In this document: positions 4,970-58,553 of the stretch, piece after piece | How the letters are laid out: each line of letters begins with the position of its first letter | How positions within the stretch are numbered: position 1 is the first letter of the stretch | NCBI GenBank assembly: GCA_045601825.1 | Contig: JAZSAI010000033.1 | Span: 57,946-121,945 of the forward strand | Direction of reading: 5' to 3' | Length of the DNA: 64,000 nt | Origin: Paludibacteraceae bacterium | Lineage (GTDB): Bacteria > Bacteroidota > Bacteroidia > Bacteroidales > Paludibacteraceae | Made by a program: the position numbers and the translations under genes | The notes under the pieces: model-generated | Database searches by the model: none | Told to the model about the DNA's origin: nothing | What the model saw: only the letters and a program-made list of their open reading frames with translations

Positions 4970-6037
4970 ATGAAAAAACTTCTGTTACTATTCGCTGTTG
5001 TGTCGCTCATAGCGTGTAACCCTCCCCAAGACACGTATCCTGATCCTGTAGTAGGCAGTTATGCTTATGGTGCTGATTGTTCTTGGATTAGTGAGCAAGA
5101 AGCAGATGGAGTGCTCTTCTATGATTCCCTTGGTATGGTCAAAAATGGCATGCATGTAATGCGTGATGCAGGTATGAATTCTGTACGCTTTCGTGTATGG
5201 GTAAACCATTCTACTGGGTGGAGCAACAAAGAGGATGTCATTCGTAATGCTCGTCGTGCGGACTCACTCAAACTGCGCGTAATGATAGATTTCCATTATT
5301 CCGACTTCTTCGCAGACCCTAGCCGTCAGAATATTCCTATTGCGTGGGCAGACTATGACCTTGAGCAAATGAAGCAAGCAGTAGCCAACCATACTACCGA
5401 TCTACTATCAGCACTCAAAGCAGAGGGCGTCAGCCCTGAATGGATTCAAGTGGGCAATGAGACGCGCAGTGGTATGCTCTGGCCAATGGGACGTTTCCAA
5501 GATGAGAACGGCGAGATAGAAGGTGGGTGGAGCCGTTATGCACAACTCACCACCGCTGGCTATGACGCATGTAAAGCAGTATTCCCAAATGCCCAAGTGA
5601 TTGTACATATTGATAATGCATATTTGGATAATAATTGGTTTTATCGCAATCTGTTGCAACATGGAGGTAAGTTTGATATGATAGGTCTTAGCCACTACCC
5701 AATGATGAAGCAATGGTCAGGCAAAGACTGGCAGGAGATGAATCAATTGGCGGCACAAAACATCGTTAATTTGCATAACGAGTTTCAATGCCCTGTGATG
5801 GTGGTGGAAATAGGTACCTATGCCAATGATTCTAACTCCGTGGATGTTATAACCGATTTCCGCCAACGTGTGGACACTATGGAGTATATGAAAGGAATCT
5901 TCTATTGGGAACCACAAGTCTATGGAGGTTGGCGCCCACAAGAATATATCCCATTAGGGTGGGGAGCATACCATATGGGAGCTTTCACATCAAACGGACA
6001 ACCTAATGAAGCCCTCAAAAACCTCTGGAAAAGATAA
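4970..6037 (+). CDS. GH53 arabinogalactan endo-beta-1,4-galactanase (lipoprotein)
   Basis: Lipoprotein signal ...VVSLIAC. GH53-type motifs are GADCSWISEQEADGVLFYD, NSVRFRVWVNH, IQVGNETRSGMLWP (acid/base Glu) and VMVVEIGT (nucleophile Glu). Confidence 0.88.
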   Translation: MKKLLLLFAVVSLIACNPPQDTYPDPVVGSYAYGADCSWISEQEADGVLFYDSLGMVKNGMHVMRDAGMNSVRFRVWVNHSTGWSNKEDVIRNARRADSLKLRVMIDFHYSDFFADPSRQNIPIAWADYDLEQMKQAVANHTTDLLSALKAEGVSPEWIQVGNETRSGMLWPMGRFQDENGEIEGGWSRYAQLTTAGYDACKAVFPNAQVIVHIDNAYLDNNWFYRNLLQHGGKFDMIGLSHYPMMKQWSGKDWQEMNQLAAQNIVNLHNEFQCPVMVVEIGTYANDSNSVDVITDFRQRVDTMEYMKGIFYWEPQVYGGWRPQEYIPLGWGAYHMGAFTSNGQPNEALKNLWKR

Positions 6038-6070
6038 TTCAAAATTCATAATTCAAAATTCATCATTCAA
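6036..6070. repeat. Five phased heptamers AATTCAW filling the GH53-stop to GH2-start spacer
   Basis: aattcaa aattcat aattcaa aattcat cattcaa. The TAA stop (6035-37) and ATG (6070-72) sit on the array edges. Confidence 0.9.
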
Positions 6071-9769: not shown

Positions 9770-10837
9770 TTATACTATCTTAGCAGGAATCAGTTTCTCG
9801 CGAATTTTCACATAGATAATCGTCTCTTTCTTGGCAAACGCTGTTTGCACATAGCCCATCCCAATGCCCACTTTAGTAGTAGGCAGCATGATACCGCTGG
9901 TGACATTACCAATCGTATTGCCCTCGGCATCGCAAAGCTCATAGCCACAACGTGGAATAGCACGCTCTTGACACTCAAAATGCACCAGTTTGCGTTTTAC
10001 GCCTTCGGCTTTCTGCTGGAGCAAGTACTCTTTGTCGATAAAGTCCTTAGCATCAAACTTCGTAATCCAACCCAATCCTGCTTCCAATGGCGAAGTGGTG
10101 TCATCTATATCATGACCATAGAGGCAGTACCATTTCTCCAAACGCAAACTGTCGCGTGCGCCCAATCCGATAGGTGCCAAACCAAAGTCTTTGCCCACTT
10201 CGAAAAGCGCATCCCAGATTTGTTTGCTATGCTCTTTGGGGAAATACAATTCAAATCCGCCTGCGCCCGTATAGCCTGTATTACTGAGGATGACGCCCTG
10301 CGCGCCTGCGAATGACCATTCTCGGAAAGCATAATAAGGAATCGCACTCAAATCGGCGTCGGTAAGCAGTTGCAACATCTCTGTGGCTTTAGGTCCTTGC
10401 ACTGCCAATTGACCATAGCGATCGCTGGCGTTCTCCAATTGCACACCAAAGGTGTTGTGCTCGTTTACCCATGCCCAGTCCTTGTCGATATTGCCTGCAT
10501 TGACAACGAGGAGGTACTTAGTGGTGGAGTACTTGTAGATAATCAGGTCGTCCACAATACCGCCTTTGCCGTTAGGGAAGCAGGTGTATTGTGCTTTACC
10601 AGCTTCGAGTTTGCTCACATCATTGGTGGTGATATATTGCAGGAAGTCCAATGCCTTCTCACCTTTCACCCAAAACTCGCCCATGTGGCTCACATCGAAC
10701 ACGCCCACGCCTTCGCGCACGATGATGTGTTCTTGATTGATACCTGTAGGGTATTGAATAGGCATATTAAAGCCCGCAAAATCTGCCATCTTCGCTCCCA
10801 GAGCGATATGGATGTCTGTAAATGGAGTAGTTTTCAT
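9770..10837 (-). CDS. gcvT: Glycine cleavage system T protein (aminomethyltransferase)
   Basis: 355 aa, [29 protein letters not shown]...[12 protein letters not shown]...LAVQGPKA. This is the canonical GcvT layout. Confidence 0.93.
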
Positions 10838-10863
10838 ATAATTCTTTTAGTTCACTTTGTTTA

Positions 10864-10995
10864 CGTTATTGGTTCGCTTCGCTCACGAAAGTGGTTTCAC
10901 GTTAATGGCTTTGCGTTATTTACGTACCAAAGGTACCACTTTCGTCGAAGACCATTTTCGCTTTAGCCACTTTCGCGGCTCTGCCGCCATTTACG
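10864..10995. repeat. Word + mini-hairpin array (words CGTTAWTGG / CCAYTTWCG)
   Basis: Words alternate with GCTTCGC, CACGAAAGTG, GCTTTGC, TACCAAAGGTA, GTCGAAGAC and CGGCTCTGCCG. Confidence 0.9.
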
Positions 10996-11002
10996 AAAAT
11001 TG

Positions 11003-12214
11003 TTACGCTTTCTCAACAATTTTCAAAATCACCTCCATCGCCTTCTCCATGGATGGAATAGGCAAATACTCAAATCGGCTGTGGAAATTCACACCGCCTG
11101 CGAAGATGTTAGGGCATGGCAGTCCCTCAAACGACAGGCGTGCGCCGTCTGTTCCGCCACGGATAGGTTGTACCTTTGGTGTCACACCCACCTCTTTCAT
11201 CGCTTCCTCTACGAGGGTAACGATATGCATCACAGGTTCCACTTTCTCGCGCATGTTGTAGTATTGGTCGCGGAGCTCTACCTCTACGGTGCCTTCGCCA
11301 TATTCTTGATTAATCTTGCGTGCCAAGTGCTCCATCTCGCGTTTGCGGCTCTCAAAGCGTGCGCGGTCGTGGTCGCGGATAATATATTGCAAGGTAGTTT
11401 CTTCTACGCTACCGTTCATAGCGATGAGGTGATAAAATCCCTCATAACCTTGTGTGTGCTCTGGTGTCTCCCAACGAGGCAACATAGTGGCAAACTGATT
11501 AGCAATACGCATAGAGTTGATCATCTTATGGTAACCATATCCTGGGTGTACATTCACGCCATGCACTTTCACTTTGCAGCCCGCTGCGTTGAAATTCTCG
11601 TATTCCAGTTCGCCCACAGCACCACCGTCCATGGTGTAGGCAAAGTCGCATCCGAACTTCTCCACATCAAAGTGGTCGGCACCTTGACCAATCTCCTCAT
11701 CTGGCGTAAAGCCCACACGAATCTTGCCGTGTTGAATCTCAGGGTGTTGAATAAGGTACTCGCATGCGGTAACAATCTCCGCCAAGCCCGCTTTGTCGTC
11801 TGCGCCGAGCAGGGTCGTTCCGTCAGTCACGATAATGTCTTGCCCTTTGTAATCCAGTATCTCAGGGTATTTAGCCACTTCGAAGACGATGTTTTTCTCT
11901 GCATTGAGCACGATGTCATTGCCGTCGTAGTGGGTGACGATGCGTGCTTTTACGTTCTTGCCACTTGCATCAGGTGCAGTGTCCATATGGGCAATAAAAC
12001 CGATAACGGGCTTACCTTCCACGTTGGCGGGTAGGGTAGCCATCACATAGCCGTTCTCGTCCAATGTCACCTCTTGCATACCAATCTCTTTGAGTTCATT
12101 GGCGAGGTACTTTGCAAACTCCATCTGCCCTGGAGTAGAGGGCGTCATGTTGGTTTCTTCATCCGATGTGGTGCAGAAACTCACATACTTCAAAAATCGT
12201 TCTGTAATATTCAT
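11003..12214 (-). CDS. pepT: Peptidase T (tripeptide aminopeptidase, M20B)
   Basis: [20 protein letters not shown]... N-terminus. Metal-site motifs IAHMDT, GADDKAG, TPDEEIG. Confidence 0.93.
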
Positions 12215-12248
12215 ATCTTAAATGTTTTATATTCTTCTTTTGTCAGTT

Positions 12249-12342
12249 GCTTACCCCTTGCTTACCCCTTAGTTGCCCCTTACTCGCCCCCTATTTCCAT
12301 TGGAACCTCATTGGAACCTCATTGGAACCTGATTGGAACCTC
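12249..12342. repeat. Continuous 11-nt periodic array (4 x GCTTACCCCTT-like, then 4 x ATTGGAACCTC)
   Basis: Direct reading of the spacer between the 2-hydroxyacid dehydrogenase stop and the pepT start. Confidence 0.9.
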
Positions 12343-12351
12343 ACCGTATGA

Positions 12352-16622: not shown

Positions 16623-16697
16623 CGCTTTAGCCACTTTCGTGAGCGTAGCGAACCAATAACGCGAAGCCAATAACGTCGGCAAAGCCGACCAATAACG
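16623..16697. repeat. Word + mini-hairpin array (3 x CCAATAACG)
   Basis: CACTTTCGTG, GCGTAGC, GCGAAGC and TCGGCAAAGCCGA interleave with CCAATAACG. It shares the 17-mer CGCTTTAGCCACTTTCG with 10959-10975. Confidence 0.9.
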
Positions 16698-16720
16698 TGA
16701 GTTTTAACGAACTAAGAAGT

Positions 16721-21991: not shown

Positions 21992-22012
21992 AGTTTAGAG
22001 TTTAAAGGCAAG
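21992..22012. repeat. Short heptamer run AGTTTAG AGTTTAA AGGCAAG between the nitroreductase and pdxA genes
   Basis: Complement orientation of the CTAAAC word family. Confidence 0.6.
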
Positions 22013-22016
22013 GTAT

Positions 22017-29904: not shown

Positions 29905-31152
29905 ATGAGCAATAATCTCCTTTTTACCGAGCATAAACTCGGTCCTATTACTTTGCGCAACCGCGCCATCCGTAGTGCCGCTTTCGAGAACATGGCATAC
30001 GGCAACAAACCTAGTCAAGATCTCTATAATTATCATACTGCCGTAGCACGCGGTGGTGCAGCGATGACCACGGTGGCATACTGCTCTGTCACTCGTTCGG
30101 GTGTCTCTTTCGACGGTCAACTCTATATCCACGACGAAATCAAGGAAGACCTCAAAAAACTCACCGATGGCATTCATGCTGAGGGAGCAAAAGCAAGTAT
30201 TCAGCTTGGGCACTGCGGTAATATGACCCACTTCTATACTTGCAAATGTATGCCAGTTGGTGCTAGTACAGGTTTCAACCTCTATTCGCCAACTTTGCAT
30301 CGCGCACTGAAGAAAGAAGAAATCAAGGAGATTGTCAAGGCGTTTGGTCATGCGGTGGACTTCTGTCGCGAGTGCGGTTTCGACTGCGTAGAGATTCACG
30401 CGGGTCACGGTTATCTCATTTCGCAATTCCTCTCGCCATATACCAACCATCGTCGCGATGAGTACGGAGGTTCGCTTGAGAATCGTATGCGCTTCATGAA
30501 CGAAGTGATGGCAGAGGTGATGGAGCATGCAGGCGATGATATGGCTGTGGTAGTCAAGACCAATATGTACGATGGCTTCAAGTCTGGTCTCAAAGTAGAG
30601 GAGTGTATCCGTATCGCACAAGAGATTGAGAAACATGGTGTGCATGCGCTCGTACTCACCGCAGGCTTCGTGAGCAAAGCACCTTTCACCGTCATGGGTG
30701 GTGCTATGCCAATCAAAACTTTGGCTCACTACATGAACCCATGGTCATTCTGGTGGTTGCGTCTTGCGCTTCGCTTCGTGGGTCATTTGATGATTCCTAC
30801 TGTGCCTTTCAAAGAGCTCTTCTTCCTCGATACGGCTAAGCAATTCCGCAAAGCACTCAAGATGCCACTTATTTATGTCGGTGGTATCATGGGACGCGAG
30901 AACGCAGAGACAGCTCTGGCTGAGGGCTTTGATTTTGTGCAGATTGGACACGCTTTGGTGCGCGACACTGATTTCGTGAATAAGATGCGTGAGGAGCAAT
31001 ATCACTCTGAGTGCAAACGCTCTAACTATTGCGTAGCGCGTATGTACACCCTCGATATGAAGTGTCACGAGTGTGATAAGGATATCCCTAAATACCTCAA
31101 GAAAGAAGCACTCAAATACGAACAAATGTGGTATCCCTCCTCTAAACACTAA
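29905..31152 (+). CDS. Old-Yellow-Enzyme-family NADH:flavin oxidoreductase with C-terminal Cys cluster
   Basis: LGPITLRNRAIRSAAFE, IQLGHCGN, VEIHAGHGYLISQFLSPYTNHRRDEYGGSLENR (OYE signature). The tail is SECKRSNYCVARMYTLDMKCHEC. It starts 4 nt after the 5-alpha-reductase stop. Confidence 0.88.
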   Translation: MSNNLLFTEHKLGPITLRNRAIRSAAFENMAYGNKPSQDLYNYHTAVARGGAAMTTVAYCSVTRSGVSFDGQLYIHDEIKEDLKKLTDGIHAEGAKASIQLGHCGNMTHFYTCKCMPVGASTGFNLYSPTLHRALKKEEIKEIVKAFGHAVDFCRECGFDCVEIHAGHGYLISQFLSPYTNHRRDEYGGSLENRMRFMNEVMAEVMEHAGDDMAVVVKTNMYDGFKSGLKVEECIRIAQEIEKHGVHALVLTAGFVSKAPFTVMGGAMPIKTLAHYMNPWSFWWLRLALRFVGHLMIPTVPFKELFFLDTAKQFRKALKMPLIYVGGIMGRENAETALAEGFDFVQIGHALVRDTDFVNKMREEQYHSECKRSNYCVARMYTLDMKCHECDKDIPKYLKKEALKYEQMWYPSSKH

Positions 31153-31181
31153 ACACTAAACTCTAAACACTAAACTAGAAT
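31140..31181. repeat. Six phased heptamers CWCTAAA spanning the OYE stop to the SDR start
   Basis: ctctaaa cactaaa cactaaa ctctaaa cactaaa ctagaat. The last OYE codons (..SKH*) and the SDR ATG are inside the array. Confidence 0.9.
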
Positions 31182-32007: not shown

Positions 32008-32026
32008 ACTCTAAATAGTAGGTGAT

Positions 32027-32386
32027 TTGGGCACGTTATGTACCCGAAAAGAAGAACAAGAGATTCAACTTAATCGCAAACTGGCTCAGATAGTAATTGG
32101 CGTACGACGCAGTGGAAAATCTACATTGTGCCAAAAAGTTCTCTTGCAAAGTGGCGTACATTTCGCTTATGTAAATTTCGATGACGAACGCTTACAACGA
32201 GTGTCTGCAGAAGATTTAGATGATATATTGCAAGAACTATATGCTATCTATGGGGCATTCACACATCTATTCCTAGATGAGGTACAAAATGTCAGTGGTT
32301 GGTACTCGTTTGTGAATAGATTGCTTCGACAAGGGGTTAAATTGATACTTACGGGTAGTAATGCGAATTTACTTAGTGGAGAATGA
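32027..32386 (+). pseudogene. Fragment of an AAA ATPase (COG1373/DUF4143-type), truncated at both ends
   Basis: Only the Walker A (GVRRSGKST) and Walker B (LFLDEVQ) region is present, 119 codons from a TTG. Full-length relatives are about 400-450 aa, for example 34227..35561. Confidence 0.7.
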
Positions 32387-32521
32387 AGTACGCATCTGAC
32401 TAACCCTTAGAATTGACAATAATTGACGTCTTAATTGACGATAATTGTCTTTAAACATTGACCCTTGATTTATAAATATTTTTATAGCGAGTGTAACGAA
32501 GCGTATTTTTGTTTGAAAAAA

Positions 32522-33571
32522 ATGAAACAACTGCTCACATACCCCGACATAGCCCCCACCGCTTGGCAAGAGTTGGTGGACCGCTCACCCTACGCTACGT
32601 GGTTCCAAACGCCAGAGGCGTATGAATTCTATGCGTCACTCCCAGAGGAGATGACGCCGTTTGCCTATGCGGTAGCAGAAGATTCCTCATCGCCTTATCG
32701 CCTAAAAGCATTATGCGTGGGCTATATTACAAAAGAAAAGAGTGCTCTCAAGCAGTTCTTCACTCGCCGTGCGATTATCATCGGTGGACCATTGCTCGCC
32801 GAAGATGCAACCGCCGAAGAAATAGCCGCCTTGCTTAACGCAGTGAAAAAACTACAGCGAAGCAATCTACAGCCCGCAGGGCGATCTACAGCAAAGCGAT
32901 CTACAGGGCATAGCCCGATTTATGTAGAAACGCGTAATTTTCATAATTACAGTCACTGGAGAGATTCATTTGAAGCTTGTGGGTTCTTATACCAGCCACA
33001 CTATGATATTCATGTGCATTGCAATGCTACGCACACCATGAGTGAGCGACGTCAGCGCGAACTCAAGCGCGCTGTGAAAAACGGTGCGGAGATCGTAGAG
33101 GCATCATTCGAACAGGAGATACGCGATTGGTACCAGATTCTCAGTAAACTTTATCGCCAGAAAGTACGTACTCCGCTATGGAGCGAAGCGTTTTTCCTGC
33201 AATTCTATCGCAGTGGAGTAGGGAAGTACTTACTAGTGAAGTGCCAAGACAAAGTCATAGGCGGAATGATGTGCCCGATACTACAAGGAAAAGCGATATA
33301 CGAATGGTATGTATGTGGATTGGATGAGGAGTATCGCGACTTCTTCCCATCTGTGATGGCTACGCATGCTGCTATCGAATATGCCAAGACCAACGCTCTG
33401 CCTCTCTTTGATTTTATGGGCGCAGGCAAACCCAATGTGCCATACGGCGTGCGTGATTTCAAGATGGAGTTTGGTGGCGAACTGGTGGAGTATGGAAGAT
33501 TTCTTTGTATTCGCAAGCCACTGCTATATAAGATTGGAGAATGGGGAGTGAAATGGTTGAAGAGATGGTGA
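32522..33571 (+). CDS. FemAB-like / GNAT-fold peptidoglycan-bridge-type acyltransferase family protein
   Basis: 349 aa from the ATG at 32522. C-terminal GNAT-like core ...GKAIYEWYVCGLDEEYRDFFPSVMATHAAIEYAKTNALPLFDFMGAG...VRDFKMEFGG. Contains an in-frame word/hairpin array (32852-32916). Confidence 0.55.
   Translation: MKQLLTYPDIAPTAWQELVDRSPYATWFQTPEAYEFYASLPEEMTPFAYAVAEDSSSPYRLKALCVGYITKEKSALKQFFTRRAIIIGGPLLAEDATAEEIAALLNAVKKLQRSNLQPAGRSTAKRSTGHSPIYVETRNFHNYSHWRDSFEACGFLYQPHYDIHVHCNATHTMSERRQRELKRAVKNGAEIVEASFEQEIRDWYQILSKLYRQKVRTPLWSEAFFLQFYRSGVGKYLLVKCQDKVIGGMMCPILQGKAIYEWYVCGLDEEYRDFFPSVMATHAAIEYAKTNALPLFDFMGAGKPNVPYGVRDFKMEFGGELVEYGRFLCIRKPLLYKIGEWGVKWLKRW
32852..32916. repeat. In-frame word + mini-hairpin array (word GATCTACA) inside the FemAB-like CDS
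   Basis: Hairpins GCGAAGC, GCCCGCAGGGC, GCAAAGC and GGGCATAGCCC alternate with (A/G)ATCTACA. Encodes LQRSNLQPAGRSTAKRSTGHSP. Confidence 0.9.
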
Positions 33572-33678: not shown

Positions 33679-34062
33679 ATGGCAAAGATTACACCAGTAG
33701 ATTACGTACAAGGAATTAGCGGTAAAGTCAGTGGCAAAAGCTCTGGCTATTTCTACCAATCCAAACAAACAGGCAAAACCTACTACCGCGAACGCGAAGA
33801 AACCTATCAAGCCAATCAGTCCCCACGTCAGAAGTGGAACTCTGCGGCTTTCGCCTATGCGCACCGCGAGCTCCGCAAGATTGAAGTTGACTACACGCAA
33901 AAGGAACAGATGGAGAAGGATTACGAACAATCCAACCATCGTGCTCCTAACGGCAAGTCTTACACCACTGCCCATGCTTGGAAATTCAATTGCCTTCTTC
34001 ACGAGTACAAATTAGCCAATCCCTTCGAAAATATTTTGGGGAAACACGGAAAAACGGACTAA
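33679..34062 (+). CDS. Hypothetical basic protein (127 aa)
   Basis: ATG-initiated ORF with soluble, Lys/Tyr/Gln-rich composition. The overlapping antisense ORF 33649..34002 looks like mirror-frame noise. The last 8 codons and the stop lie in unit 1 of a 33-bp tandem repeat. Confidence 0.45.
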   Translation: MAKITPVDYVQGISGKVSGKSSGYFYQSKQTGKTYYREREETYQANQSPRQKWNSAAFAYAHRELRKIEVDYTQKEQMEKDYEQSNHRAPNGKSYTTAHAWKFNCLLHEYKLANPFENILGKHGKTD

Positions 34063-34132
34063 AAAGTTTTGGGGAAACACGGTAAAATGGACTAAAAAGT
34101 TTTGGGGGAAATGGAAATTGTCTGAAAACCAG
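34034..34132. repeat. 33-bp tandem repeat, about 3 units (third unit degenerate)
   Basis: TTTTGGGGAAACACGGAAAAACGGACTAAAAAG, then the same with 2 mismatches, then a decayed copy. Unit 1 contains the stop of the 127-aa ORF. Confidence 0.85.
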
Positions 34133-34226: not shown

Positions 34227-35561
34227 ATGAGTACACCTATTTTTAAACGAAAGTTATACGACCAATTATTGGCTTGGAAACAAACAAATATCGGTCAAAC
34301 AGCTCTTTTGATAGAGGGGGCTCGCCGTGTGGGTAAATCTACATTGGTTTCGCTATTTGCCAAAAACGAGTATCGTTCGGCAATTATTATTGATTTTAAT
34401 AATGTACCTCAGCATATTATTGATTTGTTTGATGATTATTCTAACTTGGACTTCTTATTTTTGAATCTTCAAACGCACTATCATGTACAATTATTTGAGC
34501 GTGAATCTGTAATCATATTTGATGAGGTGCAGCAATGTCCTCGTGCACGACAGGCAATAAAATATTTAGTAGCAGACGGCAGATATGATTATATAGAGAC
34601 TGGCTCTTTAATTCGTTTACACAAAACTACAAAAGACATCACTATCCCTAGTGAGGAAAAACATATTACACTATATCCTCTTGATTATGAGGAATTCTGC
34701 TGGGCTTTAGGTGATACACTAACAATGAATCTCGTTCGTCAGCAATTTAGCCAACAACGTGGTTTCGGTGGTGCACATCGTGATTTGATACGCGACTTGC
34801 GATTATATATGTTAGTGGGTGGTATGCCGCAAGCAGTAAAGGCATATATCGAAACGAATAATTTTGCTCAGGTTGATGCTATCAAAAGGGATATTTTGAC
34901 TCTTTATGCGGATGATTTTCGGAAAATAGACTCTACTGGAAGAATCTCCAAGTTGTTTATGTCGATTCCTGCTCAGTTGAGCAAAAACGCTATTCGCTAT
35001 ATAGCATCAAGTGTGGTAGGAGAAATAGATTCTAATCGATTATTGGAGATGCTTGCGCAGATGGAAGATAGTCAGGTTGTGAATTTTGCATACCATGCTA
35101 ATGATCCAAATGTGGGTATGTTTCTGAATAGCAATCATGGACAATATAAAATGTTTTTATGTGATACAGGATTATTTGTTACATTGGCATTTTGGGATAA
35201 AGATTTTACAGAAAATGTGATATATAAGCAATTATTATCAAATAAATTATCTGCTAATATGGGATATGTGTATGAAAACTTGGTTGCTCAAATGTTAGTA
35301 ACTGCAGGAAATAAGTTGTTTTATTATACCTTTCCCAAAGATAATAAGCATTACTACGAGATTGATTTCCTTATTTCAAGAGGAAAGAAAATATGTCCTA
35401 TAGAGGTAAAATCGGGTAATTATCGCACACATGTTTCATTGGATGTTTTTATAGGTAAATTTAGTGATAGAATAGAACGTTCGTATATTTTACACACCAA
35501 AGATACAGAGAAGAAAGGTAATATTCTCTGCCTCCCAATGTATATGACACCATTGTTGTAG
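34227..35561 (+). CDS. AAA ATPase, COG1373-type (AAA_14 + DUF4143-like C-terminal domain)
   Basis: Walker A GARRVGKST and Walker B IIFDEVQ. The C-terminus ...YEIDFLISRGKKICPIEVKSG is typical of this family. AT-rich compared with neighbouring genes. Confidence 0.8.
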   Translation: MSTPIFKRKLYDQLLAWKQTNIGQTALLIEGARRVGKSTLVSLFAKNEYRSAIIIDFNNVPQHIIDLFDDYSNLDFLFLNLQTHYHVQLFERESVIIFDEVQQCPRARQAIKYLVADGRYDYIETGSLIRLHKTTKDITIPSEEKHITLYPLDYEEFCWALGDTLTMNLVRQQFSQQRGFGGAHRDLIRDLRLYMLVGGMPQAVKAYIETNNFAQVDAIKRDILTLYADDFRKIDSTGRISKLFMSIPAQLSKNAIRYIASSVVGEIDSNRLLEMLAQMEDSQVVNFAYHANDPNVGMFLNSNHGQYKMFLCDTGLFVTLAFWDKDFTENVIYKQLLSNKLSANMGYVYENLVAQMLVTAGNKLFYYTFPKDNKHYYEIDFLISRGKKICPIEVKSGNYRTHVSLDVFIGKFSDRIERSYILHTKDTEKKGNILCLPMYMTPLL

Positions 35562-37410: not shown

Positions 37411-38055
37411 TTGAGTATATTGTCACAATTAAGAAACATAGGATGTTTGCCTTTTGATAAGGGATGGCTGCAATCGGTCTTCCCTAATAATATACATCTC
37501 ACGGATAAAGTACGTCAATTAGTGGCAACAGGACAAATCATACGCCTCAAAAGAGGCATGTATGTTCTCAGCGAAGAACTAACTCAAAAACCTATTAACC
37601 GATTTATAGTGGCTAATCACTTGTATGGTCCTAGTTATGTGTCGCAGCAAACTGCTCTGCGCTATTATGGACTAATCCCTGAAACTGTATATTCTGTACA
37701 ATCGGTGACAACTAAAGCAACGCGTTCGTTTAATACGCCAATAGGAACGTTCTTCTACACTTCGGCACAACCGCAATGGTTTCCTATTGGCGTACATATG
37801 CATACGGAAACGGATCTGTCCTATTTAATCGCTACTCCTGAGAAAGCACTGCTGGATGTAGTGCAGTTTACGGCAGGTGTATCTATGCGCTACGCGAAGG
37901 AAGTAGGTGAATGGTTGGAAGAAGATTTGCGCTTTGATATGGATTGGTTAGCCGAAATCAATATGGATATACTTAAGCAACTAGCACCTCTATCACATAA
38001 ACAAAGAACAATAGAAACTATCATTCGATTTATAGAAAATGAACGACGTGTTTAG
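37411..38055 (+). CDS. abiEi: AbiEi-family antitoxin / transcriptional regulator (type IV TA, abortive infection)
   Basis: TTG start. ...QLVATGQIIRLKRGMYVLSEE... wHTH N-domain, then the AbiEi C-domain. Overlaps the downstream toxin gene by 17 nt. Confidence 0.8.
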   Translation: MSILSQLRNIGCLPFDKGWLQSVFPNNIHLTDKVRQLVATGQIIRLKRGMYVLSEELTQKPINRFIVANHLYGPSYVSQQTALRYYGLIPETVYSVQSVTTKATRSFNTPIGTFFYTSAQPQWFPIGVHMHTETDLSYLIATPEKALLDVVQFTAGVSMRYAKEVGEWLEEDLRFDMDWLAEINMDILKQLAPLSHKQRTIETIIRFIENERRV

Positions 38056-38863
38056 TCAAATGTTAGCTGTGCACACCATGCAAGGTACAGATGGTCAGCG
38101 CAATGCGCTATACGAGGTTATGCAACAGGTGGCATTGGCTGGTTTAGCGCGGGGTGGGTTCTTTCAAGAAGCTGCCTTCTATGGTGGCACATGTTTGCGC
38201 CTATTTCATGGACTGAAACGTTATTCGGAAGACATGGACTTCTTGCTGATACAAAAGAACCTTGATTTTCAGTTTGAGAAATATTTTCCTGCCATTATTG
38301 AGGAAGCACGTTTGTTGGGACGAGAGGTGTCTATCACCAAAAAAGACAAACGCAATTTTGGTCGTGTAGAGTCTGCATTTTTGAAGGATACAACAGATGT
38401 GTACAACCTCAGTTTCCAAACAGATCGCTCTGTGCGGATAAAGATAGAAGTTGATACCAATCCTCCAATGTCGTTCACGACCGAACAACGACTGATGGTG
38501 CAACCCTATTCGTTTATGGTACAATGCATGACTTTGCCTTGTCTGTTTGCAGGTAAGATGCATGCATTAGTTTACTGCCAATGGAAAAATCGCGTCAAAG
38601 GGCGCGATTGGTATGACTTTGAGTGGTATGTAAGGTGGAACCATCCTTTGAACTGGGCACATCTGCATGAACGTATTGTGGAGTTCTCGGGAAAGGAATG
38701 TACAAAAAATGAGTTCATAGGACTCCTCAACGAACGATTAGCAACGACCGATATAAATCAAGTGAAAACAGATGTGCTGCCATTTGTGCACCATCCAAGA
38801 GAATTAGATATCTGGTCTAATGATTACTTTTTGCAACTAGCTCAGCGTATTCGCTGGGAATAA
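38039..38863 (+). CDS. abiEii: AbiEii/AbiGii-family nucleotidyltransferase toxin
   Basis: NTase motif FYGGTCLRLFHGLKRYSEDMDF and the downstream ...KIEVDTNPP... pattern of the AbiEii family. Confidence 0.85.
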   Translation: MNDVFSQMLAVHTMQGTDGQRNALYEVMQQVALAGLARGGFFQEAAFYGGTCLRLFHGLKRYSEDMDFLLIQKNLDFQFEKYFPAIIEEARLLGREVSITKKDKRNFGRVESAFLKDTTDVYNLSFQTDRSVRIKIEVDTNPPMSFTTEQRLMVQPYSFMVQCMTLPCLFAGKMHALVYCQWKNRVKGRDWYDFEWYVRWNHPLNWAHLHERIVEFSGKECTKNEFIGLLNERLATTDINQVKTDVLPFVHHPRELDIWSNDYFLQLAQRIRWE

Positions 38864-40134: not shown

Positions 40135-40169
40135 GAACGGCGCATAGCGCCTACTGTTTAGAGTTTAAA
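40127..40169. repeat. Composite CTAAAC-hairpin-CTAAAC spacer element, inverted orientation
   Basis: GTGTTTAG-gaac-GGCGC ATA GCGCC-tac-TGTTTAGAGTTTAA. The wecB stop TAG is inside the first word. Confidence 0.85.
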
Positions 40170-40180
40170 GATAAAAATAT

Positions 40181-42122: not shown

Positions 42123-42123
42123 T

Positions 42124-42164
42124 CACTAAACAGTAGCGCTTTAGCGCGTTCTCTAAACACAAAA
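42124..42164. repeat. Composite CTAAAC-hairpin-CTAAAC spacer element (mntP to DUF3109)
   Basis: CACTAAACAGTA-GCGC TTTA GCGC-GTTCTCTAAACACAAAA, then ATATG. Confidence 0.85.
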
Positions 42165-42166
42165 AT

Positions 42167-44060: not shown

Positions 44061-44087
44061 CCCGCAGGGCGTTCACTAAACACCAAA
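44041..44087. repeat. Composite CTAAAC-hairpin-CTAAAC spacer element (cinA to transporter)
   Basis: CACTAAA CACTAAA CAGTA-GCCC GCA GGGC-GTT CACTAAA CACCAAA, then TATG. The cinA C-terminus SLNTKQ* is encoded by the words. Confidence 0.9.
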
Positions 44088-44088
44088 T

Positions 44089-47140: not shown

Positions 47141-48536
47141 TTATAAGTTTGAATAGCTTATACGGCATGTAGCGGAAAGGCATGTCCACGAAGGTTGGGG
47201 TAGAGACTACCGAACGGCGGTGGGAGAAAGTTATGAAACTCTCCTTGCCATGATATGACCCCATACCCGAATTGCCTACACCGCCAAAGGGCACGTCGTG
47301 ATTCACTATGTGCATAATCACATCATTCACACAAGCACCGCCTGAAGATGTGTGGCGCAATACATAATTGCCATTGGTGCCGAAATAATACAATGCCAAT
47401 GGCTTCTCACGGTCGGTAACAAAAGTGATAACCTCATCTATCTCCTTGAATGTTAGCACGGGGAAGATTGGACCAAAAATCTCTTCTTGCATGACAGGGG
47501 CGTCTGGACTGACATCCGTCAAGATTGTTGGACTCATATAACGTTCGGCGCGGTCATAGTGACCGCCGTAATAGATGGACGCTTCGCTATGGGACGGCGT
47601 TCCGCCTATTGGACGCCCTGACGGGCTATTGGATATAGGCAAGTAACTAATCAAACGCTCCAATGCTTTGTCGCTGACAATACGCACGAAGTGTTTTGCC
47701 TTTTGTGGGTCTTTGGTTAGTAGGTGTTTCCACTCTTTGACAAGCAGTTTGAGGAACTGATCTTTTACGTCCTCATGAATCATCAGATAATCAGGTGCAA
47801 TACATGTCTGTCCTGCGTTGAGTGCTTTGCCCCATGCCACGCGTTTGGCTGCCACTTTAAGGTCGGCGGACTTGTCAATGATACATGGGCTCTTGCCACC
47901 CAACTCAAGCACGACAGGAGTGAGGTGCTTGGAAGCGGCTTCCATAACCATCTTTCCTAGCGAAGGGCTTCCTGTGAAGAATATTAAGTCCCATCGCTCA
48001 GCAAGCAGCATTTGATTAACCTGACGGTTACCCTCAACAATAGCGATATACTCCTCGGGGAAAGTGGCGCGAATCATCTCAGTAAGTACTGCCGATACAT
48101 GTGGTACGTATGGCGAGGGCTTGAGCATGGCTGTACAGCCTGCAGAAATGGCACCTACCAATGGATTGAGCAGCAATTGCACAGGGTAGTTCCATGGCGC
48201 AATGATGAGGGTATTGCCAAGCGGCTCTTTGATAACCTTGCTGGTAGCAGGCATAATCGCAATAGGCGAACATTTGCGTTCGGGGCGCGCCCAACGGCGC
48301 ATATGCTTGAGGTGATTGCGAATCTCACCATAGACAATGCTCAGTTCGGTGAGGTATGCCTCTTCGTAGGACTTGTGAAGGTCGGTCCAAAGGGCTTCAG
48401 CAAGTGGCTTCTCATATTGGTGCATGGCGTCGGATAACTTGCGTAGCATTTGCTTGCGGAAAGGTAGCGCAAGGGTAGCGCCAGAGCGGAAATACGCTTG
48501 TTGCTTGCTGCGAGTCGTTGAAATGTATTCTTTCAT
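47127..48536 (-). CDS. Aldehyde dehydrogenase (ALDH3-like class)
   Basis: FTGSPSLGK, LELGGKSP, CIAPDY (catalytic Cys), EEIFGPI. Has a ~17-aa extra loop encoded by a word/hairpin array. Confidence 0.9.
   Translation of the reverse strand: MKEYISTTRSKQQAYFRSGATLALPFRKQMLRKLSDAMHQYEKPLAEALWTDLHKSYEEAYLTELSIVYGEIRNHLKHMRRWARPERKCSPIAIMPATSKVIKEPLGNTLIIAPWNYPVQLLLNPLVGAISAGCTAMLKPSPYVPHVSAVLTEMIRATFPEEYIAIVEGNRQVNQMLLAERWDLIFFTGSPSLGKMVMEAASKHLTPVVLELGGKSPCIIDKSADLKVAAKRVAWGKALNAGQTCIAPDYLMIHEDVKDQFLKLLVKEWKHLLTKDPQKAKHFVRIVSDKALERLISYLPISNSPSGRPIGGTPSHSEASIYYGGHYDRAERYMSPTILTDVSPDAPVMQEEIFGPIFPVLTFKEIDEVITFVTDREKPLALYYFGTNGNYVLRHTSSGGACVNDVIMHIVNHDVPFGGVGNSGMGSYHGKESFITFSHRRSVVSTPTFVDMPFRYMPYKLFKLIKKMV
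47581..47633. repeat. In-frame word + mini-hairpin array inside the ALDH CDS (minus-strand gene)
   Basis: GCTTCGC, GGCG-TTC-CGCC and GCCC-TGAC-GGGC alternate with TATTGGA/TATGGGA words. Encodes PISNSPSGRPIGGTPSHSEA. Confidence 0.9.
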
Positions 48537-52015: not shown

Positions 52016-52019
52016 TCCG

Positions 52020-52082
52020 GGTATCGGTTATCGGATATTGGTTATCGGTTATCGGATATCGGTTATCGAATATCGGATATTG
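52020..52082. repeat. Nine tandem heptamers GWTATYG
   Basis: ggtatcg gttatcg gatattg gttatcg gttatcg gatatcg gttatcg aatatcg gatattg. Starts 5 nt after the acyl-CoA ligase stop. Confidence 0.92.
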
Positions 52083-52109
52083 AAAAGTATTGGAAAATGC
52101 GCATACCGT

Positions 52110-53623: not shown

Positions 53624-53645
53624 CACAGGATTTGAGATAAAGAAG

Positions 53646-53782
53646 TTAGATCGCTGCGCTTGTAGATGGTAGATCGCCACTGAAGTGGCTGTAGATCGGG
53701 CTAAAAGCCCTGTAGATGGTAGAATGCAGCGTTATGCTACACAATCCTACACGTACGCAAAGCGATCGTTTGAGCGCTAGCG
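53646..53782. repeat. Word + mini-hairpin array (word GTAGATCG/GTAGATGG) in the leader of the Na/Pi transporter gene
   Basis: Hairpins GCTGCGC, CCAC-TGAA-GTGG, GGGC-TAAAA-GCCC, CGC-AAA-GCG and the palindrome CGCTAGCG. The words are the reverse complement of the GATCTACA words at 32852-32916. Confidence 0.9.
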
Positions 53783-57971: not shown

Positions 57972-58026
57972 GTTTTGTGTTTAGTTTAAAGTTTATAGTT
58001 TTAAGGGAGGGAGGCGGTTGTGCCGC
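57972..58026. repeat. Five phased heptamers (minus strand CTNTAAA-like) plus a GCGG-TTGTG-CCGC hairpin, between the GNAT stop and the ADH start
   Basis: Plus strand reads gttttgt gtttagt ttaaagt ttatagt tttaagg. The ADH ATG abuts the array. Confidence 0.8.
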
Positions 58027-58034
58027 TTATCACC

Positions 58035-58520: not shown

Positions 58521-58523
58521 AGA

Positions 58524-58543
58524 TTTTTTTTTTTGGGGGGGGG
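58524..58543. repeat. Back-to-back homopolymers T11 G9 (C9 A11 on the coding strand)
   Basis: agaTTTTTTTTTTTGGGGGGGGGagg. Occupies most of the 33-nt spacer between the TolC-like stop and the GNAT start. Confidence 0.95.
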
Positions 58544-58553
58544 AGGAATGCAG

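Follow-up and report, generated by a model that had tools for sequence, protein, structure and literature searches.

Small interspersed repeats are poorly catalogued in the Bacteroidota, and the one that concerns us here lies between the genes pepT and gcvT of a gut Paludibacteraceae bacterium, in a lineage known only from metagenome bins, within a stretch of 64,000 nucleotides (contig JAZSAI010000033.1, positions 57,946 to 121,945) that was analysed at its full length and that we call the window. Several described kinds of small repeat invite comparison. The Rickettsia palindromic elements (RPEs) are 100-150 nt long, have a fixed sequence and occur both between genes and in frame inside genes. 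The enterobacterial repetitive intergenic consensus (ERIC), or intergenic repeat unit (IRU), is imperfectly palindromic, measures about 127 nt and lies in transcribed intergenic DNA; it is highly conserved between species, yet present or absent at orthologous sites, and an effect at the RNA level has been suspected. It follows one consensus sequence, lacks both an internal minisatellite and a word grammar, and is found in either orientation (Hulton 1991; Wilson and Sharp 2006). BrickBuilt, a MITE (miniature inverted-repeat transposable element) found in Porphyromonas gingivalis, and so in a Bacteroidales host, is strictly intergenic and made of a leader, a variable number of 23-nt tandem units and a tail; its unit number varies between loci and strains, a secondary structure is predicted for it, and it is low-copy, with 19 copies (PMC4596501). 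The pneumococcal BOX element (boxA-boxB(n)-boxC) is modular too, with a variable internal unit, lies in transcribed intergenic regions, adopts a stable fold and is patchily distributed between strains (PMC3049150). Repetitive extragenic palindromes (REP) and the bacterial interspersed mosaic elements (BIME) that they form are clusters of small palindromes in alternating orientation inside operons, some units being intragenic, and roles in mRNA stabilisation and attenuation have been proposed for them (PMC3733652). Short direct repeats upstream of start codons have also been reported in a few Bacteroidetes, Paludibacter included: TAACTGA heptamers and long simple sequence repeats are forward short words standing a few nt from the start codon, in species whose close relatives have short spacers free of repeats (PMC4679880). 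On each of the points just given for BrickBuilt, BOX, REP/BIME and the heptamers, the pepT-gcvT element is comparable.

We tentatively understand this element as a lineage-specific, modular interspersed repeat, the length of which would change as that of a minisatellite does, by slippage, which would spread by recombination, and which would be tolerated since its folding upon itself leaves the downstream start open; the reading is plausible, though far from secure. It would then be one member of a low-copy, lineage-restricted repeat family of gut Paludibacteraceae, to be likened in kind to BOX, BrickBuilt and ERIC. The element has a definite modular anatomy, the number of its units varies between species, its copies are dispersed to operon junctions in sense orientation only, and orthologous sites are found both filled and empty. 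Comparison of sequences further indicates near-identity between diverged species, together with a patchy distribution that conflicts with the tree of the flanking genes.

The pattern itself is real and non-random. The original prediction, made from the letters of this one copy, had parsed positions 10864-10995 into 9-nt words alternating with six tiny hairpins. The words are indeed in place (CGTTATTGG at 10864-72, CGTTAATGG at 10900-08, CCACTTTCG at 10936-44 and again at 10967-75, CCATTTTCG at 10952-60 and CCATTTACG at 10987-95), and the consensus CGWWARTGG has eight matches in the window, six of which fall within the 110 bases of 10886-10995. Direct repeats of 8-mers, with at most one mismatch, cover 0.83 of the spacer as against 0.43 +/- 0.12 in 1000 dinucleotide shuffles (p<0.001), and inverted repeats cover 0.60 as against 0.26 (p=0.005). 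Taken alone, the mini-hairpins are weaker evidence, marginal over shuffles: with stems of at least 3 bp and loops of 3-4 nt there are ten where shuffles give 5.3 +/- 2.4 (p~0.05), with stems of at least 4 bp five where they give 1.4 (p~0.02), and two of the six hairpins listed (GCTTCGC and GCTTTGC) have stems of 2 bp only. One might hold, on the strength of this barely raised hairpin density and of these two short stems, that chance or faulty assembly produced the whole pattern. This is extremely improbable and already refuted: beyond the word repetition, a scan for word-hairpin-word (8-nt word, at most one mismatch) returns 99 matches in the window as against 33.4 +/- 8.0, with a maximum of 51, in 40 dinucleotide shuffles of it, so that shuffled DNA, which the prediction had proposed as a control, does not reach a similar density; and the element is not an assembly artefact, because its sequence was recovered in five independent assemblies, to which copies at other loci must be added. 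The strongest clusters in that scan are the pepT-gcvT element, a second copy at 16623-16720, several other spacers and two intragenic sites.

Since pepT and gcvT both lie on the minus strand, the prediction, which followed the plus strand, had read the antisense of the probable pepT-gcvT transcript. The words were right, and yet the reading missed a 22-nt unit of variable number, the copy at 16623-16720 and a hairpin across the pepT stop codon. Neither is the array one-way as it supposed: words occur in both orientations, CGAAAGTGG (10886-94, plus strand) being the reverse complement of CCACTTTCG, and form nested inverted repeats, so that the spacer folds as a single imperfect hairpin of about 130 nt. 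The spacer extends over 165 bp (10838-11002), and its parts, with the two flanking cistrons, are the following.

11003-12214, minus strand: pepT (tripeptide aminopeptidase), the upstream cistron, a full-length match to NCBIfam NF003976 (638.7 bits), with its stop codon TAA at 11003-11005.
10995-11024, minus strand: 10-bp hairpin around the pepT stop codon, arms GAAAATTGTT (11015-11024) and AACAATTTTC (10995-11004), from the inverted repeat and from folds.
10915-11002, minus strand: 5' module (sense nt 1-88), four G-rich words and small hairpins.
Minus strand: the G-rich words of the 5' module, CGTAAATGG (10987-95), CGAAAGTGG (10967-75), CGAAAATGG (10952-60) and CGAAAGTGG again (10936-44).
Minus strand: the small hairpins of the 5' module, GCGGCAGAGCCGC (10975-87), GTCTTCGAC (10944-52) and the central GTACCTTTGGTAC (10924-36).
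10895-10914, minus strand: variable linker of the 3' arm, made of GCAAAGC (10908-14), the word CCATTAACG (10900-08) and TGAAA.
10873-10894, minus strand: 22-nt minisatellite unit CCACTTTCGTGA-GCGAAGC-GAA, one copy, with its 7-nt mini-hairpin at 10876-82.
10838-10872, minus strand: degenerate last unit CCAATAACGTAAACAAAGTGAAC, then the A-rich tail TAAAAGAATTAT up to the gcvT start codon.
10864-10995, minus strand: long imperfect hairpin of the 5' and 3' word modules, from computed folds.
9770-10837, minus strand: gcvT (glycine cleavage T protein), the downstream cistron, a full-length match to NCBIfam NF001567 (438.8 bits).

The host is an uncultured gut Paludibacteraceae: the best matches of the GcvT protein of the window are metagenome bins of this family, and exact-protein look-ups gave no record for either GcvT or PepT.

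The pepT-gcvT spacer was compared among 80 related genomes, where its length goes from 0 to 231 nt, some genomes having genes inserted there, and where most relatives have a spacer of 0-60 nt or an unrelated one. The element is carried at this junction by the window genome and by four relatives (L003, L011, L104 and L106), 97-100% identical between carrier species and absent from closer relatives. Its 5' 88 nt show 0-2 differences among the five carriers, while 4-fold degenerate sites differ by 23-48%; the last 35 nt of the spacer show 0-3; in the terminal part of pepT, divergence continues as far as the stop codon, and downstream of gcvT no alignment between carriers is possible. What distinguishes the alleles is mainly the number of 22-nt units (one in the window, two in L003, four in L011, four in L104 and six in L106), the array starting at spacer position 109 in all of them, and secondarily the 20-nt linker of the 3' arm, which exists in two versions, L104 and L106 carrying a different one from that of the window. 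The five alleles hold few substitutions, their 3' arms differing by rearrangement instead.

The carriers do not form a monophyletic group in the trees of pepT and of gcvT, L011 lying at a distance. L105 and L111 fall among them, yet have short spacers of GTTTARWG words, 100% identical to the spacers of clades that are about 15% diverged in coding DNA. Conversely, L104 and L011 have a pepT end of the type that pairs with a short spacer, yet the element follows it and the stop-codon hairpin is broken; the two are recombinants, the stop codon marking the breakpoint, and the spacers behave as cassettes that species exchange. To judge from the alignments, the near-identity of the element between species may be due to short-tract recombination or to strong constraint, two causes that are not fully separable.

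At the same junction, L013-L024 and L115-L124 show an insertion hot spot for whole genes, which in different relatives are those of an alpha/beta hydrolase, of a T5orf172/MUG113 protein, or of a DNA methylase together with a HaeII-type restriction enzyme. GTTTARWG words form the short pepT-gcvT spacers of many relatives, in varying number (44-nt and 51-nt alleles). As for gcvT itself, its first 90 nt or so (10747-10837) have 0-2 synonymous differences per 90 nt among the closest relatives, the rest of the gene 3-5 per 30 nt; an exceptional conservation of this segment was considered and set aside, the effect being only mild in 23 genomes (third-position diversity of 0.25-0.28 vs about 0.40).

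Folding gives the anatomy its coherence. Between the central hairpin and the 22-nt unit comes a module of C-rich words, reverse complements of the G-rich set; the word of the unit is likewise the reverse complement of those of the 5' module, and the long hairpin reaches -42.3 kcal/mol (z = -2.7) as sense RNA and -48.1 kcal/mol (z = -5.1) as antisense RNA. In predicted folds its core is retained in all five alleles, and the last 25 nt of the spacer are expected to be unpaired in each of them, with a mean pairing probability of 0.14-0.26. The sense 7-mer of the unit, GCGAAGC in the window, is GCGCAGC or GCGTAGC in relatives, and d(GCGNAGC) is the published consensus of a mini-hairpin that is extraordinarily stable as DNA and weak as RNA (PMC13037366). 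Variants of the unit (ACGAAGT, ACAAAGT, GTGAAAC and GTAAAAC) keep both pairs of this mini-hairpin through compensatory double changes of two kinds. That structure is conserved and sequence is not, as had been proposed, could not be concluded from one copy; it is borne out by comparison, in these variants and in an intragenic array, discussed below, where differences concentrate in the loops. Around the stop codon of pepT, each spacer allele begins with the reverse complement of the final codons of pepT, and the two arms covary between unrelated spacer alleles (L002, L012, with its stop TAA changed to TGA, L004, L010, with 16 bp, and L001), a permutation control giving 0.06 for an observed 0.21.

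How such an element would be built and kept can be conceived as follows. Units would be gained and lost by slipped-strand mispairing between words, aided by the stable mini-hairpins in single-stranded DNA. Short-tract recombination would carry the element, as a cassette limited by a stop codon and a start region, from one genome to another and probably also from locus to locus. It would be tolerated, and perhaps mildly useful, as it would fold on itself in the polycistronic mRNA while the gcvT start region stays open, which might uncouple the translation of gcvT from that of pepT; the structured block may also act as a processing site or as a barrier to exonucleases, as has been proposed for REP, ERIC and BOX. 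It would hardly be an essential or gene-specific regulator: it does not appear to be essential because most relatives have pepT-gcvT spacers that are short or unrelated, and serC spacers of 1 or 4 nt.

The latter spacers bring us to the dispersed copies, the second of which lies in the window itself.

16623-16720, plus strand: second family copy, between the gene of an OadA-like carboxylase subunit and serC, in sense orientation.
Parts of 16623-16720: CGCTTTAGCCACTTTCG, one 22-nt unit (with GCGTAGC), three CCAATAACG words parted by GCGAAGC and GTCGGCAAAGCCGAC, and a tail.

This copy has CCACTTTCGTGAGCGNAGCGAACCAATAACG in common with the pepT-gcvT element, and also CGCTTTAGCCACTTTCG, inverted; the two are copies of one small family, length-variable between species and swapped between lineages. 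It is identical over 98 of 98 positions in the metagenome contig L103, the flanks of which are only 95% and 93% identical, and it is absent from L133-L140, where the serC-junction spacers are those of 1 or 4 nt. A pattern scan of metagenomes gave 23 hits, roughly half of them high-GC chance matches, and the family is now known from six junctions: pepT>gcvT, oadA-like>serC, FKBP>polysaccharide synthesis protein, guaB>guaA, UPF0029>coaD-like, and unknown>small open reading frame (ORF). Its orientation is sense at all six (two-sided binomial p~0.03), and the start codon follows directly. Words and linkers are reordered in the guaB-guaA copy, as they are in L101, and we can therefore regard the family as a mosaic. 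It is low-copy, word clusters of this family having turned up at the known copies only in 895 kb of sequence scanned. A general enrichment of GCGNAGC in intergenic DNA was rejected (0.8 per kb intergenic, 0.7 per kb coding).

Dispersal of this kind naturally evokes a non-autonomous transposable element, comparable in type to MITE, BOX, RPE or BrickBuilt, which a transposase from elsewhere in the genome would mobilise in trans and which would insert at junctions, now and then in frame inside genes. The RPEs offer known cases of palindromes inserted in frame. Related copies do stand at unrelated loci; filled and empty orthologous sites are seen at the serC junction and in the gene of a GNAT protein, to which we return; the element is nearly identical in diverged species; and leader, 22-nt tandem units and tail are laid out as in BrickBuilt, the MITE of a different Bacteroidales species (PMC4596501). 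Yet the window copy has neither terminal inverted repeats, nor IS5-like ends, nor a GTAG or CGTC tag, comparison of the filled and empty sites, at serC and in the GNAT gene, brings out no clear target-site duplication, and at pepT-gcvT the resident spacer was replaced, not interrupted. The ends of the element, CGTAAATGG and CCAATAACG, match as inverted repeats at seven of nine positions only, and are ordinary array words. There is no transposase, reverse transcriptase or HUH domain, nor any RAYT (IS200/IS605-like) domain, among the 51 ORFs of the window, and blastn of the element against plasmid and phage collections gave no match; pattern scans of viral contigs never hit the 5' module, and their one match, in a contig of freshwater type, is unrelated. 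Furthermore, the word changes from array to array, and a sequence-specific transposase would not account for this. Mobilisation in trans is thus an unlikely origin.

The spacer was also confronted with other known classes and signals. The glycine riboswitch is the usual leader of gcvT. No Rfam family reaches the gathering score anywhere in the window, and relaxing the threshold to E up to 10 yields only chance matches in the region of the element (mir-1255 and RAGATH-12); a glycine riboswitch, or another known leader, is therefore rejected. No intrinsic terminator (a G+C-rich hairpin followed by a T run) was found on either strand of 10500-11400. An ORF of 24 sense codons, from an ATG in the first word to a TAA in CGTAAATAACG, was rejected because L011 has ATA in place of the start codon and because its sole other substitution is non-synonymous. 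No cas domain was found in the window, and the CRISPR plan (repeats of at least 23 nt with unique, non-palindromic spacers) is not what we see, the words being 8-9 nt long and the 'spacers' palindromes of 5-13 nt. The palindromes of REP/BIME (20-40 nt, with a family-wide sequence and many copies) find no equivalent in hairpins of 7-13 nt that are all different; as to their GTAG or CGTC tag, which stands unpaired at one end of the palindrome (PMC3733652), the copy at 16623-16720 has one of each, located inside a word or a stem. No match to the IS5-like GAGNCCNTYGCA or to its complement exists in any allele, whereas the leader, tandem-unit and tail plan of MITE type is present, with one, two, four, four and six 22-nt units behind a conserved 5' module and before a conserved tail. 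The element also has what marks BOX and ERIC, being a structured block of 100-300 nt in transcribed intergenic DNA, conserved in sequence and yet patchy, a likeness in kind and not one drawn from sequence comparison. It is not a tandem array of 7-11-nt words placed head to tail before a start codon, its words being separated by hairpins and occurring in both orientations.

Could the array act as DNA, as a promoter or as a set of sites for a regulator or nucleoid protein that would control gcvT? The central hairpin holds in its loop region TACCTTTG, a match to TAnnTTTG, the -7 box of Bacteroidetes that real promoters of the window display, and BrickBuilt segments have promoter activity (PMC4596501). 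This box was nevertheless discarded as a promoter, for it is unconserved, reading TACCTTCG in L003 and L011; moreover, there is no TTTG at the -33 position, a scan for promoters of sigma-70 type gave nothing above background, and copies of the family stand upstream of unrelated genes in strictly sense orientation. We consider a function at the DNA level as very improbable.

The grammar is found again elsewhere in the window with other words. Direct word repetition reaches p<=0.01 in 8 of 35 window spacers as against 1 of 70 coding controls, and two arrays lie inside genes.

32850-32924, plus strand: in-frame array in a GNAT/FemAB-like gene, GATCTACA words alternating with GCGAAGC, GCCCGCAGGGC, GCAAAGC and GGGCATAGCCC.
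47572-47636, minus strand: in-frame array in an aldehyde dehydrogenase gene, TCCAATA-type words alternating with GCCCGTCAGGGC, GGCGGAACGCC and GCGAAGC.

When the GNAT array is set against two orthologues, loops differ at 4 of 12 positions, words and stems at 1 of 53 (Fisher p=0.003), the 4-fold sites differing by 40-43%; another orthologue, L144, lacks exactly 51 nt. As loops drift at about the 4-fold rate and words and stems are near-invariant, it would seem that something, be it selection or a correction process, keeps words and stems unchanged and leaves the loops free. Homologues of this GNAT protein vary in length between 328 and 408 aa, owing to a second repeat hot spot that follows residue 54 or so.

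Such observations lend themselves to a functional interpretation, in which the element is a selected, cis-acting part of the polycistronic transcript, its words being read by a factor that binds RNA or single-stranded DNA (S1, cold-shock or RRM-type) or by a nuclease, with hairpins that present or space the sites and a number of 22-nt units that tunes the stability, processing or translation of the downstream cistron without Shine-Dalgarno pairing. The invariable sense orientation right before start codons at the six loci speaks for it, as do the conservation of words and stems far above that of synonymous sites where loops drift, the compensatory changes in the mini-hairpin and in the stop-codon hairpin, the predicted unpaired state of the tail in all alleles, and the precedent of forward direct repeats before start codons, in Paludibacter propionicigenes among others, for which a post-transcriptional binding role was proposed (PMC4679880). 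But words differ completely between the arrays of one genome (CGAAAGTGG, GATCTACA, TCCAATA, GTAGATCG, GAGGTTCCAAT and others), and no single factor can read them all; close relatives, in which the genes abut or overlap, do without the element; the flanking genes have unrelated housekeeping functions; arrays also stand in frame inside enzymes; and 2-bp mini-hairpins are unstable as RNA (PMC13037366). Such a selected function is a serious, if less likely, alternative.

Our preference for a tolerated repeat, lengthened by slippage and spread by recombination, must face difficulties of its own. Every functional step in it, the role at the RNA level included, is one that we infer. Family copies display no terminal inverted repeats and no clear target-site duplication, and the whole replacement of the resident spacer at pepT-gcvT counts here as it did for transposition. 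The numbers of units were read from metagenome assemblies of short reads, in which they may be collapsed. In all alleles the antisense strand folds better than the sense strand, by 1-6 kcal/mol, which does not fit selection on a sense RNA. Only two copies were seen in the 64 kb of the window, and about 70 kb of a relative some 90% identical to it showed none. Finally, the GNAT pattern points to constraint or correction at the nucleotide level over mere recency, which, as far as two orthologues can tell, would favour a functional element.

A more daring thought is that arrays of a constant word with variable GC-stem micro-hairpins are the product or the substrate of a dedicated, strand-specific system of the Paludibacteraceae. 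It could take two forms: either an enzyme would drive the seeding of arrays, at stop/start junctions as well as within protein linkers that tolerate them, or words and stems would make up a post-transcriptional code. A dedicated system would explain words and stems that are invariant with neutral loops, copies that are in sense orientation only, and spacer cassettes that are exchanged between species. We deem it decidedly unlikely.

Further arrays with words of their own deserve mention. The spacer between a 2-hydroxyacid dehydrogenase gene (serA-like) and pepT, at 12215-12351, has four GAGGTTCCAAT followed by four AAGGGGYAAGY; it was found only in the window, L003 and L011, the serA-like gene and pepT overlapping by ATGA in most relatives, and in L003 its words are changed in concert, to two GAGGTTCCGAT and two GAGGTCACGAT. 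The leader of a Na/Pi cotransporter gene (about 53640-53760), downstream of a promoter-like TAnnTTTG box, has five GTAGATSG words in alternation with two hairpins, GCCACTGAAGTGGC and GGGCTAAAAGCCC. The spacer at 52016-52096, between the genes of an AMP-binding enzyme and of a MatE transporter, is filled by some ten tandem heptamers, CGGATAT or CGGTTAT, and other spacers of the window also hold plain tandem word arrays of the kind reported before start codons (PMC4679880), the arrays of this kind lying at 6034-6070, 31142-31175 and 52018-52082. GTTTARWG words stand right before start codons at several junctions (21992-22016 and 40135-40180), with the complement at 31153-31179, 42123-42166, 44061-44088 and 57972-58034. 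In L133, positions 11093-11441, after serC, form a gap of 350 nt with five or six 14-nt words of the TTAGTGATTAGTTAG type and CCTTAAACCCTAAACC, all of which lie upstream of a TAnnTTTG box, so that word arrays characterise the lineage and not the window genome alone. Elsewhere in the window, a 33-nt unit is repeated 2.2 times at 95% identity across the end of a 127-aa ORF (34034-34107), and a run of nine C followed by one of eleven A, possibly prone to slippage, lies between two minus-strand genes upstream of an efflux-pump operon (58521-58553). There are also an AbiEii toxin gene with a small upstream ORF, an AAA_14/DUF4143 ATPase gene and, in a long 'intergenic' stretch, what appears to be a fragment of a second P-loop ATPase gene (these three at 38039-38863, 34227-35561 and 32008-32400).

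The consequences reach beyond a single spacer. In gut Paludibacteraceae, word arrays that follow a recognisable grammar often occupy the operon junctions; species exchange these spacers independently of the genes on either side, and the same array DNA can be read through as protein. If words and stems are constrained, they would amount to an unrecognised layer of intercistronic control in bacteria where initiation is not led by Shine-Dalgarno pairing; if they are not, we would have a clean natural case of hairpin-assisted slippage and template switching that build sequence de novo. In practical terms, the 22-nt unit of variable number could serve as a strain marker, a glycine riboswitch should not be expected upstream of gcvT in these organisms, and short-read assemblies may mis-size the arrays.

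It is against the described families that the originality of the element is best appreciated. With ERIC it shares size, a palindromic fold and conservation coupled to patchiness; it differs by its word grammar, its minisatellite and its sense-only orientation. REP sequences are palindromes of 20-40 nt with a conserved family sequence and a GTAG/CGTC tag, often linked to a RAYT (REP-associated tyrosine transposase), where here every hairpin of 7-13 nt is different. The heptamers of Paludibacter and others follow each other head to tail, unlike the pepT-gcvT words, which are spaced by hairpins, half of them inverted, and completed by a 22-nt unit (PMC4679880). The tandem repeats of Borgs lie between genes and in frame inside genes, where they add peptide segments, as the arrays at 32850-32924 and 47572-47636 do, but they are perfect tandem repeats without hairpin fillers (PMC9879509). 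BOX, compared by its description only, belongs to another phylum, has modules of 45-59 nt and more than 100 copies per pneumococcal genome, and lacks the alternation of a constant word with a variable micro-hairpin (PMC3049150). BrickBuilt, for its part, has terminal inverted repeats of IS5-like sequence, GAGACCTTTGCA, which the pepT-gcvT element lacks, some target-site duplications, to which the element offers no clear counterpart, and a non-repetitive leader and tail of up to about 300 nt, where our flanks are word and hairpin arrays that pair with each other (PMC4596501); the element, for its part, has a 22-nt unit with a GCGNAGC mini-hairpin, and is always in sense orientation right upstream of a start codon. 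The statement that no described repeat class fits can therefore be kept in a restricted form: there is no Rfam family, and the element lacks defining features of CRISPR, of REP and of MITE, but BrickBuilt and BOX are precedents, and it is with the general kind of BrickBuilt, BOX, ERIC and REP/BIME that the element belongs.

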